Of a stretch of 64,000 nucleotides of DNA, positions 1 to 53,282 are shown piece by piece. Both the position numbers and the translations under genes were made by a program. The stretch spans positions 124,001 through 188,000 of the forward strand of contig RSEE01000077.1 of the NCBI GenBank assembly GCA_003971905.1, written 5' to 3'. How positions within the stretch are numbered: the stretch's first letter is position 1; each line of letters begins with the position of its first letter. Source of the DNA: Moniliella sp. 'wahieum' (Eukaryota). The notes below the pieces were generated by a model. The model was not told the DNA's origin. It worked only from the letters and a program-made list of their open reading frames with translations, and did not search any database.

Positions 1-887
1 CGCGCGAGCCGTTGCCATCCGTTGGGTCCGAGAATCGACGTAGAGGTGCGGTGGTGACTTTGATATTAGTCACTGGGGATGGGTTACTTTGGTGGTGGTG
101 GCAGCGGGATAAGCGCTAAGCGCTAAGCGCTAAGCCAGCCAACGATACTATTCTTATAGGGACAGCAAACAGCCAGGGGTCAACGGCCCTGGCGTCAGTA
201 GCCCCTGGATACGGGGAGGGACAAGGAAAACAAAGGCAGTGAAAGGGAAAGAACACGTCCGAGCTCCTATATAGACCTGTTCACGGGGGAAGCGATGGTC
301 TTTGGTCGATGGCCCCTGGTCCAAGCGCACGAGCCAACGAGCCACCCTGTGGCTCGTCATCGCGCCACACGCGTCATCGGCCATCTCTATAGTCATATCA
401 TTTGCAGGGCACAAGGCTGGGGCAAAAATGCTGCGCCCAAACCGACCTGAGCATCAGGCCTTGGTTGTTGGTGCCAAAACCGCTCCTGTAGTAAAAAACG
501 AGTGAGCTGGCACCTGCCGATGAGGCGTCGGTGTGGGAGTGGGGCATGTCGGAGCGTGAAACAAGTCGAGCGTGAAGAAACGTTAGTGGAGCGCTGCAAC
601 TTGAAACTTGGAGCAGGCCGAAGAAACGCGTCGCGTGCAATCCGTCGACGCTGGCGCCGTGCCGGAGGCTTGACGCGTGAACGCGTGAACGTTGAACGTT
701 CAACTCTCCGCAGTACGTCGACCCGCCTAGGGTTACGCGTCGACGCGCCCCACACTGGCGCGGTGCCGCCTGCTCGAGGCGCCATGCGGGGGCGGGCGAT
801 GGCCGGCGCATTCGCCACCCTCAGCCAACACGCGCATTCACCGCCCTCGCACACCAGCCATCGTCCTCTGCCCCCTCCCCCGCGGCC

Positions 888-3800
888 ATGTCTGCTGTCC
901 GCCGCCAGGCACCCGTCGGCAGCGACCCATCTGCCCCACGCAGCAAGCGCAAACGCCTCGCCACCGCTGCCTCCGTCCCTGCCTCTCCCCCCCCGGCAAT
1001 GCGACACAGGAGGAGGAAGACGAAGACGAGGAGCACGACGGAGAGAAGAGAGAAGGAAGAGACACAAGGGGACGAGTGGGACGATAACGATGACGAAAAC
1101 GACGCTATCCCTCACTACGAAGAAGAGGCCGAACAGGACTTGGACGAGAATGGTGGGCCGAGCAGCGCGAAGCCAGTGCCGACGCGCAGAGAGCGTGATC
1201 CTGTGGATGAGTATGTTCCCTCCCTCCCCCCCTTCGCCCACCTTTGCCCTCCCGCCCTCGTGGCCACGGATTCGAGGTTCCCGGGCTGACATAGTCTGCG
1301 CAGGTACTTGCCCGGCTCGATTGTGCGGGTGAAGCTACAGCATTTCGTCACGTACGATCATGTCGAGTTCCGCCCCGGTCCTTATCTCAACATGATCATC
1401 GGCCCCAATGGCACAGGCAAGAGTACCATCTCGTGTGCCATTGCGCTCTGTCTGGGATACAAGCCCTCGCTGCTGGTCGTGCTACCGACGTGTCGTCCTT
1501 TGTCAACAAGGCTACGAACTAGGCTACGCCGAGATTGAACTCAAGGGTCTGCCCGGCGAACGGAACGCGGTGGTGCGCCGCTACCTCTCCACAGGCAAAC
1601 TGAACGCCAGCAAGACCTTTTACCTCAACGGAAAGGCCGTGCCGGGCAAGACGATTGCTGAGTTGATGCACAGCCTCCACATTCAGATTGACAATCTCTG
1701 TTCCTTCCTTCCTCAGGACAAGGTGACCGAGTTTGCGCGCATGACACCGGCCAAGCTCTTGCTCGAGACAGAAAAGGCATCTACCGAAGGGGATGCGTTG
1801 GTGGTGCGTCATGGCCGACTCATTGAGCACTCGAAAAGCTTGCGTGCCCTTTTAAGCGACCTGCGGCGTGAGAAGGAAGAGTTGGCAGCGGTCATGGCCC
1901 AGACCAACCGACTGCAAGGCGATGCGGATCGGCACGAGCGCCGTCGTGCGTTGGAGCAGCGCGTCAAGGTGTTGCAGACCGCTCGGCGTTTTGCCCGCTT
2001 TGGCGAGGCCCAGCGCTTGTACAAGGCCGCAGACAAGCGCAAGAAACGCATCATGGCGCGCGTACAGAAGTGGGATGCACAGAGCCGACCATTTCAGACT
2101 CTAGCGGAAACGGCCAAGGAGAAAGTGCAGAAGGCTACTCACCGCGTCACTGTGGCCGATGATGAGCGTAGCAAGGCTCTGAACACGATCCGCAAGCTTC
2201 AAGAAGAATATGACAATGCCGATGCGTCTCGGGAAAAGATGGAGATGGAATTGGAAAGTTTGGCGGACTCGGAGCGTCGTCGATTGGAACGCATCGAGCG
2301 ATTGAAGTTGACGATTGAAGAGCTCGAAACACGTACTGCCACCCCGCCTCCCGATGTCGATATGTCCCACATCAATGCGGAGCGACAGCGGATTGACCAA
2401 GCTGTTGCGTCGCAGCGCCGGACGAGTCGGATATCCAAGCGGAGATGGGCACGGTGCAGGTTGCCGACCGAAGGAACAAACAGGCCCAAGAGCATACCCA
2501 GAGTGCGATGACCAAATTGAAAGACCAGGCTAATGTCAAGCTTGTTCATTTGCGCAATTCGGATGAGAACACGTACAAGGCCCTCCTCTGGCTCCGGGAG
2601 CACGCACATGAGTTTGAGGGAAAAATCTACCCGCCAGTGATGATGGAAGTGGAGCTCAAGCCTAACTACCGCCACTTGGCCGACGCGGTCGAATGCCAAT
2701 CCGTTGGGCGACGCTCAAGACGTTTGTATGCGAACGTCGGGCGGACTATGACAAACTTTCTGCCAAGCTCAATGACGAGATGGGCTTGCGGGTGAACGTG
2801 GCTGAGATTGAAGGAGTCACAACAGAGGAAGTGCAGAGTAAAATGCCGCTCCGCTTGCTGAGTTGCGCAAACTGGGATTTGATGGCTATGTGGTGGATTT
2901 CCTCTGTGGCCCCCAAACCGTCCTCAACTTTCTCATGGCCGACAATTTGCACCAGATCCGCTCGCCGAGCACGAAGGTACATTCGACCGTGCTCGAACCG
3001 AACAACTCTTCACTCGTTTCATTGCCGGCGACACGCTGCAGAACATTAATCGCAGTCAATACGTTGGGCGCAACGGGCAGCGCATGGTACAGGTCTCGAC
3101 GCGCATTGTTTCGCCTGCACGCAACTTGGTGCACAGCATAGACACCGATTCCATCGAGCGACACGAGCGGGAGTTGGCGCAGCATCGCGAACAAGAGCAA
3201 GTGCTCCGTCAACGCTGGGAAGAGTTGCAGGCCAAGCACGAGACCATCCGAACCACTCTCCAATCGCTTAAAGTCGAACGCGAGGCGATCAACCAACAGC
3301 GCCAGCAAGCCGTCGAAGCCAAGCGAGCGTACGAGCAGGCAGTGATGGAACTCCAGAGCAAACGGTCCCAATTGCATCGCGAAACCCATGCGCCATCCCT
3401 CGAAGGCCAACGGGACAAACTTCGTGCCAAAGTGCAAACCTTCACCGATCGAATGGCAAGCTTGGCCGAAGACATCTCCTTCCGTCTGACTGTACTGTTT
3501 AACATGATGCAAAATTCGACCGAGATGCGCTTGGCCAAGATGCAAGCCCAAGCTGATGCCGAGCACTTTGCCACCATTGTTGCTGAGATTACCGAGGAGG
3601 CCCAATCGCTCATGGAGGAAATTTCCGAAGTACGAGCGGATATCAAAGCGGCCAAAAACGCTTCGAGGCGCCTGCTCGAAGAAGCACAACGGGAAATGGC
3701 AGAGTTGCCCGCCGAGTTGCAGGAACAACTCAAGTTGCTCCATGACGAAGGCTTGCCCTCGGTCGATGAGCTCACGGCCCAAATCACCGAAGCACGGATC

Positions 3801-4507
3801 GACTTGGAAAGTGCCCCGAGCGTGTCGGCCGACGTGTTGCGGCGGTACCAAGAAAAGCTGGCGCAACAAGAAGAGTTGCAAGCTAAGGTGGCTGCGCACG
3901 ATGCGGACCGAGCCAGGTTGCAAAAGAAGGTGGACAAGTACCGTGCTGCGTGGGAGCCCGCGCTGGAAGCGCTGATTGAACGTGTCAACGATCGGTTTGC
4001 CGACGCGTTTGATCAGTTCCAATGTACGGGCGAAGTACGCCTGGCCAAGCCGCAGCCGCCGGGCGGAACCGGGCCCGAAGCTGAACGCGCAGCAGAAGAT
4101 GCTGCGTTGGCATTTGAGGATTACACGGTGGAAATTCGTGTCAAGTTCCGACAAGAAGAAGAGTTGCAGTTGCTCACTGCTGAGCGTCAGAGTGGAGGCG
4201 AACGTTCCTTGTCGACCATCTTGTACCTCATGAGTCTTACCGAACTCTCTGCCGCTCCCTTTAGCTTGGTGGACGAGATCAACCAGGGTATGGACCAACG
4301 TGCCGAACGCTTGGTCCACGATCATATGGTCCGTACCACTTGTCGCCAAGCTGCCGGACAGTACTTCCTCATCACCCCAAGCTCCTTACGGGACTACGGT
4401 ACGACGAGAAGATGCGCTTGTTGATCATCAATGCCGGGGACTATGTGCCGGAACGGTTTTCGTTCAAGGATTACGCCACGCCCACCCGAGCGACGATTAC
4501 GGCGTGA
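888..4507 (+). CDS. SMC5: Structural maintenance of chromosomes protein 5 (Smc5/6 complex)
   Basis: Stitched from ORFs 888-1289, 1308-1538, 1408-2511, 2445-2795, 2693-3049, 2863-3141 and 3084-4424. Walker A GPNGTGKS, QIDNLCSFLPQDKV motif, long coiled coils, signature QSGGERS and Walker B LVDEINQGMD. Several frameshifts, probably assembly indels. Confidence 0.95.
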
Positions 4508-4636
4508 TCCGAGTGGCGGCCCTGGGGGCCAGATTGCAACAGATCCCATTTTTGTACCAAGTGACGGGGAGTGTGGTGGCGGGTGACTGTGGCAAGGGGG
4601 GGGGGGGGGGAGGGGGAGGGAGGGAGGAAGGTTACG

Positions 4637-52253: not shown

Positions 52254-52832
52254 TCATGCGTGAGAGTTGAAGGTCTCCTTCAAGCCACCTCCACCACGGA
52301 AAGCACCAGCTGCAATGAAGCCCACAACAGTCAGCATCAGCGATGTGAGGATAAAGTTGATCCAGCCAAAGGCAATCAGTGTCTCGTTGGGCCGAGCAAT
52401 ACTTGATTCCGGTAGTGTTGTAGCTGCAGTTGATGCCGCCATGCAACGACTTGTCAAAGCGGCAGAAGCAGGAGCCAAAACACCCAATCGATGAAATGAA
52501 AACAAAGTGAGAAAACAATTGAGGTAAAGACACCGCCCACGCCGGATACGAAGGCGACAACCTGATAAAGAGCAGCGAAGCGGGTCAGTGGCCGAGAGAA
52601 CAGGAGACGCGGGTTATACGGACATAGGCGGTGGCAAAGAGGAAGGAGAACCAGCCAACAAAGAGGAAAAGGCGGACACGGCCCTTGATCCCCCGGCCAG
52701 GGTGCTTGGTCATCCTTGGCGTTGTAGTCGTGGACAAGCACGGAAGCAATGATGGCCACGACAAACGAAAACACCCGAGGATGGAAAGGGAAATGGGGCG
52801 CCGCGGCGCACAACAGTGCTTGCATCGACCAT
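52254..52832 (-). CDS. MARVEL-domain tetraspan membrane protein
   Basis: Stitched MVDASTVVRRG..FSFVVAIIASVLVHDYN..RVRLFLFVGWFSFLF..WVFWL..LIAFGWINFIL. Four hydrophobic segments and a GT-AG intron at 52562-52623. Confidence 0.75.
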
Positions 52833-53243
52833 TGTGAAGGAGAAGGGGGGGGGAGCAAGACGGGGATAGGATATGGGGGTGGGACAGAGGGTTGACAAGA
52901 GGAGGTGGAGGAGGTGGTGGTGGCGCGAGAAAGGGACCGAACGGCGGCAAGCAAGGCAAATGCATTCGAGCAGAGCGCAAGGACAGGATGCGAGGCGATG
53001 AGAGGCCTGAGGGCGATGAATTCAAAGCATCGCGCCCGCCGGGCAGAGGGGGTGTGTGCTGCGCGTGTGTGCGCAACGCATCGTGGGCAGAAGCGCTAAT
53101 GAATGCACGGATGCAGGAGGGTGTGACAGCGCTGCAGGACGGCGGGGGATGGGGTTGTGTGGCTGGCGAGCATGTGAATGGAGCACATGCGATGACGGCA
53201 TGGCGTTGGCGCTTGTGAGCACGATCGATGCACGCTGATCGAT

Positions 53244-53282
53244 TAGCGCTTAGGCTAAGCTTAGCGCTTAGCCTAAGCGCTA
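53244..53282. repeat. Perfect 17-bp stem, 5-nt loop palindrome made of CTNAG units
   Basis: TAGCGCTTAGGCTAAGC-TTAGC-GCTTAGCCTAAGCGCTA. Confidence 0.9.

Follow-up and report, generated by a model that had tools for sequence, protein, structure and literature searches.

Flank hairpins that are opened by the host and sealed by end joining, leaving footprints, are described for hAT, Transib and Mutator-like elements, as well as for RAG (PMC5499845), and Ac/Ds in a fungus leaves footprints with P nucleotides (PMC5873905). Among basidiomycetes, the DNA transposons with 7-bp duplications described in PMC12730594 include hAT7 in rusts and Kyakuja in Laccaria. A related suggestion exists in the literature for Ustilago maydis, in which 10-bp repeats were interpreted as transposon footprints. 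A literature search returned no description of the array class reported here, which consists of short runs of interrupted palindromes of the form XY-TNA-Y'X' in one 64-kb window, the whole stretch of DNA analysed, from an Ustilaginomycotina (smut-related) fungus; all results rest on that window. The footprints of hAT have as their centre the complement of the base beside the element (PMC5873905). The palindromes here have an even centre, located where the 7-mer ends, so that hAT, the best known of the fungal superfamilies that form hairpins, does not fit unchanged.

Period-7 runs of the form XY-TNA-Y'X' and at least 12 nt long were found 50 times in the 64-kb window, against about 0.8 expected (mean 0.80 in 50 simulations of a third-order Markov null; Poisson P ~2e-70). 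They comprise 26 runs of 12-13 nt, 8 of 14-16 nt and 16 of at least 17 nt (Table 1). All 11 unit types named in the preliminary description were present in the window, as was every coordinate it gave, and the signal is stronger than first described; the observation holds there, with other centres at chance level (ANT 0, CNG 1 and GNC 2 period-7 runs of at least 12 nt, against 0.7, 1.7 and 1.8 expected). Of the 25 perfect period-7 runs that reach 17 nt or more, 16 can be rotated into an interrupted palindrome, and all 16 are XY-TNA-Y'X', a form whose chance share is 64 of 2340 heptamer necklaces (2.7% by our own arithmetic). In the 14-16 nt range, non-palindromic period-7 duplications (14 against 3.4 expected) are enriched to about the same degree as those of period 6 (54 against 13.6) and period 8 (3 against 0.8), and the TNA-palindrome class is the source of the period-7 surplus over periods 6 and 8.

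The arrays had first been viewed as tandem palindromic units; the palindromic TNA grammar stands, while the whole-unit composition does not, with run length equal to 5 or 6 modulo 7 in 39 of the 50 runs. Each array is built from a 5-nt seed, TNA plus two flank bases, followed by units with two inserted bases that are reverse-complementary to this flank pair. Accordingly arranged are 20 of the 21 runs of 12 nt, which begin at the T of TNA and finish at X', or show the mirror image (P 2e-10), and consist of a 5-mer, the two inverted bases and the identical 5-mer. Longer arrays retain one unpalindromised seed at one end, and usually one flank only is palindromised. Among 41 reconstructed targets, the only fixed positions are T3 and A5, and N is G or C in 71%. 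Occasional long perfect palindromes are also present, such as the 14-bp palindrome at 691-704.

With the target written p q T N A r s, the main junctions at non-palindromic seeds are rs s'r' (21) and q'p'pq (20), about 0.2 being expected of each, and their near-equal counts are what a two-fold symmetric reaction would give. These two classes make up 41 of about 55 recognisable seed junctions in a scan that detects enumerated junction types only; plain rs+pq junctions (3, plus 2 ambiguous), 7+2+7 junctions (4 and 2, plus 1 ambiguous) and period-8 variants (4) were also recorded. Scans for the main classes with other centres gave 0/0 for ANT, 2/0 for CNG and 2/0 for GNC. An unbiased scan of all 16 inner pairs placed T..A at 93 positions against 0.3 expected, and 7+2+7 junctions with this pair at 10 against 0; the rarer 7+2+7, 7+7, period-8 and period-9 variants are confined to TNA. 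Interior +9 junctions in three arrays (21049-21077, 37524-37549 and 42963-42994) suggest repeated visits and would not be made by slippage.

Replication slippage or unequal exchange of heptamers, helped by hairpin-forming palindromic units and independent of any site-specific enzyme, finds support in the roughly 4-fold excess of tandem duplications of all periods over the Markov null, in the self-complementary arrays and in the further copies that become possible once two exist. Slippage should nevertheless produce runs of 14 nt with some lengthening by chance, whatever the phase, whereas remainders of 5 or 6 predominate and the phases are fixed; the restriction to T..A inner pairs, the inverted two bases at unpalindromic seeds, the 7+2+7 class and the interior +9 junctions are left unexplained. 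As the origin of the arrays, slippage is largely refuted, and the explanation as a whole is very unlikely.

TNA/TWA is the target class of PIF/Harbinger, the source named in the preliminary description, and the intergenic sites also agree with footprints of a 3-bp TNA/TWA duplication. The two bases on each side of TNA are copied too in the 7+2+7 and 7+7 junctions, however, which argues for a duplicated target of 7 bp and not 3 bp, and the centre is G or C, not W, in 38 of the 50 runs. TNA-TNA duplications, at 55 against 50 expected, are not enriched and contradict such footprints, which are a highly improbable source. The wider proposal of a recurrent process, in which transposase insertion and excision leave hairpin-type palindromic footprints in accessible intergenic DNA, agrees with the anatomy.

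The arrays are probably stacked excision scars, left by a cut-and-paste DNA transposon or by a nuclease that resembles a transposase and shares its chemistry, either being a putative agent. An element would insert with a 7-bp target-site duplication, NNTNANN, of which T3 and A5 are the sole fixed positions. Its excision in this fungus would leave on each flank a covalently closed, blunt hairpin whose tip coincides exactly with the end of the duplicated 7-mer. The junctions suggest nicking by a host nuclease at 2 nt beyond each hairpin tip, which would give a palindromic 3' overhang of 4 nt on either side, reading r s s' r' at the left flank and q' p' p q at the right one, and duplexes that both terminate at TNA. 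On a first visit the overhangs would be mismatched and one alone would enter the product, pqTNA-rs s'r'-TNArs or pqTNA-q'p'pq-TNArs, the original copy plus a new perfect palindromic 7-mer; these products are seen in the window, and the mismatch is their presumed cause. Once a unit is palindromised, both overhangs would be identical and self-complementary, so that the ends would be cohesive and every later visit would add exactly 7 bp. Each footprint would thereby multiply good targets and favour arrays, ordinary slippage may contribute additional copies, and less common processing may generate the 7+2+7, 7+7, period-8 and period-9 junctions and the occasional long perfect palindromes.

Identical scars might also be written by a nuclease or repair pathway that is independent of transposons, at sites where a mobile element has never resided; a domesticated transposase, for example, could bind TNA symmetrically, make breaks 7 bp apart and pass through hairpin or fold-back intermediates. 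In line with such a pathway, a Pfam scan of 93 stop-to-stop ORFs, selected from the 214 in the window that reach 110 aa or more, found no transposase domain, and a search of the window for inverted termini with a 7-bp duplication gave no element, its 7 hits being 5 array self-matches and 2 without a TNA centre. The junction outcome, unusually uniform for end joining, also counts for the nuclease pathway and against transposon scars. A secondary class with CNA for TNA occupies 10 positions against 0.3 expected, and by our own reading its inverted bases lie on the A side, beside the intact T-strand half-site, at 7 of 7 minimal loci (P 0.008). This asymmetry, which the excision-scar model leaves unexplained, suggests that recognition of T/A may belong partly to the nicking step and not to target choice alone, and hints at a nick that reads T. 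The 7+2+7 and 7+7 junctions, however, need the full 7-mer on both flanks before joining, which integration, unlike a simple break, explains directly. Without duplication, a symmetric hairpin cut at TNA predicts two different adjacent palindromes, whereas one flank is usually palindromised, and it predicts a complemented centre in one copy, as does the fold-back repair at TNA first suggested. The central base is identical in both copies at 41 seed junctions, as target duplication predicts, and complemented at 2, which speaks against fold-back repair. The transposon-independent pathway is unlikely.

Gene spans, roughly drawn and covering 40% of the window, hold 1 of the 50 runs (binomial P 2e-10, a generous value because the runs are clustered). 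Location in promoters, and palindromes suited to dimeric factors, would agree with selected cis-regulatory elements in the form of tandem sites for such factors, but the 50 runs contain 13 distinct XY pairs, the same site holds different units in two paralogous promoters, and the seed anatomy has no regulatory rationale. An assembly artefact is opposed by the CGTGACG array, which stands at the matching place in both old paralogs, perfect in one and decayed by 2 substitutions in the other. Little credence is given to either regulatory selection or artefact.

These two old promoters, A and B, preserve the unexpanded state of sites. One ancestral TCA site bears a left-flank palindrome repeat in A (38011-38024) and a right-flank palindrome array in B (43420-43452). 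Where A has one GCTAA, B shows a +7 event followed by a 7+2+7 event (42904-42926), and where A has one CGTGA, B shows +5 and +7 (42645-42656). By our own reading, the alignable promoter contains about 10 indels of 5 nt or more, of which about 6 are array-type events.

Table 1. Arrays, junctions and paralogous segments in the 64-kb window.
Position	Strand	Feature
110..135		GCTAAGC-type run, 26 nt; seed TAAGC + 3 units
673..691		Period-8 array (ACGCGTGA) at TGA site; junction variant
686..704		GTTGAAC-type run (15 nt); centre of final unit complemented, giving the perfect palindrome
6662..6677		7+2+7 junction: TGA-centred 7-mer, 2 inverted flank bases, 7-mer again
6848..6863		7+2+7 junction, TGA site
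9906..9918		TCTCAGA-type minimal run, 13 nt
11026..11038		GATCATC-type minimal run, 13 nt; sole run within a rough gene span
12603..12615		CTTGAAG-type minimal run
12977..12991		CCTGAGG-type run, 15 nt
13327..13338		CTTCAAG-type minimal run, 12 nt, phase 3 to 7
13478..13496		GATAAGC x2.7; TAA-centred, seed-type phase, spacer 1 base off the palindromic rule
13572..13583		GTTAAAC-type minimal run, 12 nt
15262..15274		CCTCAGG-type minimal run
15318..15338		ACTGAAG x3, exactly 21 nt; plain 7-bp duplication, TGA at 3-5, without inverted bases
15564..15576		TGTTACA-type minimal run
17738..17754		TGTGACA-type run, 17 nt
17843..17855		ACTAAGT-type minimal run
18082..18101		GTACCCA array, CNA-centred variant; outer 2 pairs palindromic, centre CCA
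18270..18281		GGTGACC-type minimal run
21049..21077		CATGATG-type array; runs 21049-21065 and 21066-21077, interior +9 junction between
21084..21103		GACTAGG array; outer pairs AG..CT palindromic, centre not TNA
21120..21132		AGTCACT-type minimal run
21392..21482		AGTTGCT / AGGTGCT imperfect array, ~13 copies; outer pairs palindromic, centre TTG or GTG
21912..21930		AGTAACT-type run, 19 nt; seed at right end
21944..21963		AGTTGCT array; outer pairs palindromic, variant as at 21392..21482
22182..22194		GTTCAAC-type minimal run
32914..33073		CTTCAAG-type runs (32914-32925, 32942-32967, 32991-33017, 33040-33073) alternating with period-9 CTTCATCGA junctions (7+2+7 type); entire block subsequently copied as 49-bp higher-order repeat
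33138..33149		TCTAAGA-type minimal run
36186..36205		CCTTAGG-type run, 20 nt
36267..36286		TCTCAGA-type run, 20 nt
36494..36523		TCTCAGA-type minimal run (36494-36505) adjoining GTTTAAC-type run (36506-36523)
36807..36827		Overlapping minimal runs, GATGATC-type (36807-36818) and TGTGACA-type (36816-36827)
36974..36993		CTTCAAG-type run, 20 nt
37027..37046		Overlapping minimal runs, CATGATG-type and GATGATC-type
37094..39357	+	Paralogous segment A, promoter and gene of unknown family; internal outgroup
37300..37318		CGTGACG-type run, 19 nt; copy with 2 substitutions at matching place in paralog B
37377..37400		Period-8 array (AGCTTCAG x3), TCA site; junction of 1 flank base + 4-nt palindrome
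37524..37549		CGTCACG-type run, interior +9 junction; extra copy missing in paralog B
37943..37961		CTTGAAG-type run, 19 nt; not in paralog B
38011..38024		AATCATT-type run, paralog A; left flank of ancestral TCA site palindromised
41407..41420		Plain 7+7 duplication, TCA centre
42430..44775	+	Paralogous segment B, 76-86% identity to A
42504..42515		GATAATC-type minimal run
42645..42656		CGTGACG-type minimal run after 5-bp duplication; single copy in paralog A
42846..42858		CGTCACG-type minimal run
42904..42926		GCTAAGC-type minimal run (42904-42915), then 7+2+7 junction (42911-42926)
42932..42994		GTTGAAC-type run (42932-42958) adjoining CTTGAAG-type runs (42963-42982, 42983-42994); TGA core common to both unit types, hybrid unit between, interior +9 junction; not in paralog A
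43078..43089		ACTGAGT-type minimal run; not in paralog A
43420..43452		AGTCACT-type run, 33 nt, paralog B; right flank palindromised, same ancestral TCA site as 38011-38024
50048..50061		CTTCAAG-type run, 14 nt
51425..51438		GTTGAAC-type run, 14 nt
51596..51608		CTTAAAG-type minimal run
53248..53282		GCTTAGC-type run (53259-53272) within nested GCTNAGC-kind palindromes
53446..53461		CATCATG-type run, 16 nt

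Within the window, intergenic DNA carries short arrays of period 7 whose units differ in sequence and share the form XY-TNA-Y'X', in which the bases on one side of a T-N-A core are the reverse complement of those on the other. All arrays listed in the preliminary description were found at their positions, and their abundance was borne out by 50 runs of at least 12 nt, where 50 simulations of a third-order Markov model predict 0.8. At a threshold of 17 nt there are 25 perfect period-7 runs; an interrupted palindrome appears in some rotation in 16 of them, and all 16 take the XY-TNA-Y'X' form, to which arithmetic assigns a chance share of 2.7% (64 of 2340 heptamer necklaces). 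Control heptamers palindromic around other centres occur at chance level (ANT 0 runs, CNG 1, GNC 2). Non-palindromic 7-bp duplications exceed the null about 4-fold, which is not above the enrichment at 6 bp or 8 bp; the period-7 peak thus belongs to the TNA class itself. Among nine longer non-palindromic period-7 arrays, five have palindromic outer pairs around a deviant centre and two are TNA-centred. Only one of the 50 runs is genic, though rough gene spans make up 40% of the window, indicating gene avoidance, and it is unlikely that the arrays are regulatory elements or an assembly artefact. A literature search found no account of period-7 TNA-centred arrays, which is not proof of absence.

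The length of an array does not correspond to an integer count of palindromic units, length modulo 7 being 5 or 6 in 39 of the 50 runs. Exact 12-nt runs fall, in 20 of 21 cases, into either of two mirror-image phases (P 2e-10), namely TNA-Y'X' + XY + TNA-Y'X' or XY-TNA + Y'X' + XY-TNA. Longer arrays, which reach up to five copies, follow the same layout: a seed lies at one end with its outer two bases non-palindromic, and in each added unit two bases repeat the two flank bases of the seed in reverse-complement form. From this anatomy it follows that the elementary event at a 7-base target site pqTNArs is a 7-base insertion, yielding pqTNA-rs s'r'-TNArs or pqTNA-q'p'pq-TNArs, where s'r' and q'p' are the reverse complements of rs and pq.

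A junction census covered all identical TNA triplet pairs at most 8 bases apart, testing for spacers composed of rs s'r' and q'p'pq, and class counts were restricted to seeds whose flanks are not yet palindromic. The two main classes are nearly equal, with 21 junctions of the rs s'r' type and 20 of the q'p'pq type (about 0.2 expected for each), so that inverted flank copies, or P nucleotides, are present where the site itself offers no palindrome. Plain rs+pq junctions, here termed 7+7, number 3 with 2 ambiguous; junctions in which two inverted bases separate 7-mer copies, termed 7+2+7, comprise 4 of the form rs s'r' pq and 2 (with 1 ambiguous) of the form rs q'p'pq; and there are 4 period-8 variants. 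In the 7+2+7 and 7+7 junctions a target of fixed length is directly duplicated, and TNA occupies its positions 3-5. When other centres were substituted for TNA, the main two classes gave 0/0 for ANT, 2/0 for CNG and 2/0 for GNC, while an unbiased scan of all inner pairs returned T..A at 93 positions against 0.3 expected, with C..A as runner-up (10 against 0.3) and 10 cases of the 7+2+7 pattern with a T..A inner pair against 0 expected. In the 41 reconstructed target sites, T3 and A5 alone are fixed, and 71% of the sites have G or C at N.

Several other routes were weighed and set aside. A slippage-born satellite would extend by whole units, in arbitrary phase and irrespective of symmetry; the observed phases, lengths modulo 7 and TNA specificity do not follow this pattern, and the 7+2+7 junctions and 9-base steps (+9) count equally against an origin by slippage. 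A symmetric hairpin break at TNA without target duplication predicts a complemented centre and two different adjacent palindromes, and is rejected because 41 seed junctions have the same central base in both copies, against 2 with a complemented one, and because as a rule one flank alone is palindromised. A 5-bp duplication with 2 P nucleotides fits the main class; it requires an asymmetric target and leaves the 7+2+7 and 7+7 junctions unaccounted for. For polymerase snap-back or template switching, every path considered, by reasoning alone, required a zero-length loop.

The preliminary description had proposed a recurrent enzymatic process, with transposase scars as one form and fold-back repair at TNA sites as another; this broad reading is partly supported, and the lead to PIF/Harbinger transposons is not supported. 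These elements duplicate a 3-bp TWA/TNA within an extended palindromic target, and thus share with the window a T-N-A core in a symmetric target. The 3-bp duplication is contradicted by spacerless TNA-TNA pairs, which showed no excess in the same scan (55 against 50 expected), by the co-duplication of flank bases, and by the predominance of G or C at the centre (38 of the 50 runs).

On balance, the arrays are probably excision footprints left one upon another by an unseen element that makes a 7-bp target duplication and hairpins at its flanks. Such an element would insert by cut-and-paste, leaving pqTNArs on both sides. The hairpin tip would coincide with the exact end of the 7-mer, and the nick would fall 2 nt past it, the position for Artemis-type opening. 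After nicking, the duplex of the left flank would stop at TNA, beyond which rs s'r' would project as a 3' overhang, and the right flank would present q'p'pq followed by TNA. Retention of one overhang and loss of the other would generate the two main junctions in equal numbers, retention of one overhang together with the other flank's own two bases would generate 7+2+7, and opening of both hairpins at the tip would generate 7+7. At a palindromised site both overhangs would be an identical self-complementary 4-mer, so that the ends would be cohesive and the next visit would lengthen the array by exactly 7 bp. Three arrays contain interior +9 junctions, which indicate that arrays were revisited and that growth was not by slippage alone. 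The near-uniformity of junction type is unusual for end joining, and a candidate cause is that mismatched 4-nt overhangs are ligated in register, after which the strands would segregate into the two junction types.

The paralogous promoter and gene segments A and B, which serve as mutual internal outgroups, display the unexpanded state of several sites, with single copies opposite +7, +5+7 and 7+2+7 changes. They are old paralogs (76-86% identity) whose promoters can be aligned. One ancestral TCA-core site was palindromised from the left flank in A, giving one unit, and from the right flank in B, giving five copies, and reconstruction from both returns one identical ancestral 15-mer. Where A has GCTAA once, B has undergone a +7 and then a 7+2+7 event, and where A has CGTGA once, B shows +5 and +7. 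The CGTCACG run in A has one additional +9 copy. The CTTGAAG run of A is missing from B, and the GTTGAAC and CTTGAAG block of B is missing from A. The CGTGACG array is common to both, with 2 substitutions in B; as this array is shared and others are not, the process was active both before and after duplication of the segments. In the alignable part of the promoters, about 6 of some 10 indels of at least 5 nt, as read from the alignment, are of footprint type. No TNA-type indels were seen between the members of a second paralog pair.

In its chemistry the proposed mechanism matches excision footprints of the hairpin type already described, such as those of hAT elements (Ac/Ds), Transib, Mutator-like elements and V(D)J coding joints, in which duplications are likewise joined through inverted flank copies. 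RAG/Transib hairpins are blunt, and target duplications measure 8 bp in hAT and 5 bp in Transib, compared with 7 bp here. According to passages in PMC5499845 and PMC5873905, flank hairpins formed by hAT, Transib, Mutator-like and RAG enzymes are opened off-centre by the host and end-joined, leaving short inverted flank copies as P-nucleotide footprints. The window differs in that one junction type dominates and footprints are stacked as arrays. As portrayed in PMC5873905, Ac/Ds palindromes centre on the complement of the adjacent base, whereas those of the window are even-centred at the duplication end; since the central base is also unchanged, classical hAT chemistry does not fit, and a one-base offset of it fails on the same two features.

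Other symmetric targets of DDE enzymes include the Tn10/IS10 hot spot GCTNAGC, nTnnnnAn for hAT and the palindromic 7-bp duplication of Galileo. The Tn10 consensus already has the form XY-TNA-Y'X', and these targets resemble that of the window in two-fold symmetry with few fixed bases; their palindromy is a sequence preference, whereas in the window X and Y are free and palindromy is made by flank copying. Among DNA transposons of basidiomycetes, excerpts of PMC12730594 describe 7-bp duplications for hAT7 in rust fungi and Kyakuja in Laccaria, which agree with the window in phylum and duplication length. The hAT enzymes make flank hairpins, neither hAT7 nor Kyakuja was found within the window, and Ustilaginomycotina goes unmentioned in that paper. 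The nearest precedent within the subphylum comes from Ustilago maydis, for which part of PMC4081816, citing Laurie 2012 and Schirawski 2010, describes numerous small intergenic 10-bp repeats as possible transposon footprints, with 26 lying among the effector genes of a single cluster; by this description, their period is 10 rather than 7. New features would be the 7-bp target NNTNANN inferred here, the signature of a blunt hairpin and the dominance of a single junction, and the chief novelty is that footprints are stacked into arrays resembling a special microsatellite class.

A bolder reading, which we put forward tentatively as possible though doubtful, is an undescribed, self-reinforcing route to tandem repeats via excision scars, driven by a hairpin-forming, 7-bp-duplication element new to Ustilaginomycotina. 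Whether left by a transposon or by a transposase-like host nuclease, the scar would turn an arbitrary NNTNANN into a perfect palindrome, every later visit would add one exact 7-bp unit and one target, and promoters would fill with 'footprint microsatellites'. The agent is deduced from its scars: no transposase domain and no inverted termini with a 7-bp duplication were found within the 64-kb window. An enzyme of the same geometry, independent of any transposon, could write such scars as well, a less likely possibility. As a candidate agent, an 894-bp inverted-repeat structure (260-bp arms, 94% identical, around about 370 bp with a small minus-strand ORF) was rejected because the 7-base flanks of its two ends do not match, so that no target duplication is evident.

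If the excision-footprint reading holds, the arrays document naturally how a basidiomycete opens hairpins and joins ends, through about 40 first events, independent of one another, and many later repeat events within 64 kb. From the scars alone one can then read where the nick falls (2 nt past the tip), the spectrum of junctions and the unseen element's target logo. The reading would also trace a concrete path by which transposon activity gives rise to tandem repeats in promoters and makes them grow, the promoters of a duplicated gene family included, and it would supply a testable rule for re-examining small unexplained repeats of other smut genomes.

The window has a G+C of about 0.57 and intron-bearing fungal genes, comprising an SMC5-like gene, KRE6/SKN1, a globin-domain protein, an FAD/NAD oxidoreductase, an aspartic protease, a NIF-type phosphatase, an ABC transporter, a cation-efflux protein, an FAD-binding oxidase, UPF1 and an LRR protein. 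The best identity of the UPF1 fragment is 86-87%, to Thecaphora and Tilletia proteins, and the aspartic protease shares 38% identity with the best match that bears a name (Tilletiaria) and 72% with one unnamed protein. These matches place the source in the Ustilaginomycotina, with no close named relative among the proteins searched. Diverged paralogous segments (76-87% identity) cluster at 37-56 kb as a locally amplified gene family, whose genes have no Pfam match and lower G+C.

Positions of arrays, paralogous segments and other repeats in the window
Feature	Position	Remark
Segment A	37094-39357	paralog cluster
Segment B	42430-44775	paralog cluster
Paralogous segment	40148-41178	paralog cluster
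Paralogous segment	46262-47075	paralog cluster, inverted
Paralogous segment	54922-55489	paralog cluster
Second paralog pair	40100-41200 vs 54880-55510	
Array with interior +9 junction	21049-21077	
CGTCACG run	37524-37549	A; interior +9 junction
Array with interior +9 junction	42963-42994	B
TCA-core site	38011-38024	A
TCA-core site	43420-43452	B
Site opposite GCTAA	42904-42926	B
Site opposite CGTGA	42640-42656	B
CTTGAAG run	37943-37961	A
GTTGAAC and CTTGAAG block	42932-42994	B
CGTGACG array	37300-37318	A
CNA class	7472-7483	
CNA class	10494-10505	
CNA class	12906-12917	
CNA class	18082-18101	
CNA class	21249-21260	
CNA class	21365-21376	
CNA class	21392-21482	
CNA class	21944-21963	
CNA class	36425-36436	
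CNA class	56051-56064	
Inverted-repeat structure	41480-42373	
Decayed TGCGTAT array	15717-15771	
49-bp tandem duplication	32934-33066	
42-bp tandem duplication	42695-42784	
Lone perfect palindrome	21554-21574	
Lone perfect palindrome	13724-13741	
Lone perfect palindrome	55061-55078	
9-bp tandem duplication	43056-43073	B
15-nt odd palindrome	43071-43085	B
Ordinary simple repeats	8538-8606; 9225-9526; 4596-4631	(AG)34, TGGGGA/TGGAGA arrays, G-rich tracts

A secondary class follows a 5+2+5 plan with CNA replacing TNA, at 10 positions where 0.3 are expected. Its inverted bases derive from the A-side flank in all seven minimal loci read by eye, which suggests that nicking itself depends on the T of the strand that is cut; this side bias is outside what the excision-footprint model accounts for. 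A decayed period-7 array of TGCGTAT (about 8 copies, 68% matches), whose unit CG-TAT-CG has palindromic outer pairs around a non-TNA centre, may be an old mutated member of the arrays. Two tandem duplications, one of 49 bp (2.7 copies, 98% identity) and one of 42 bp (2.1 copies, perfect), repeat stretches in which TNA-type footprints and GCTSAGC palindromes were already present. The overall excess of palindromes with arms of at least 6 is modest, at 38 against 17 for even-centred and 50 against 17 for odd-centred ones, many of them within the arrays. Lone long perfect palindromes with arms of 9-10 nt lie outside the arrays. Segment B also carries a perfect 9-bp tandem duplication (GCGGGCTAC twice) that A lacks, adjoining a 15-nt odd palindrome which takes in the ACTGAGT run.
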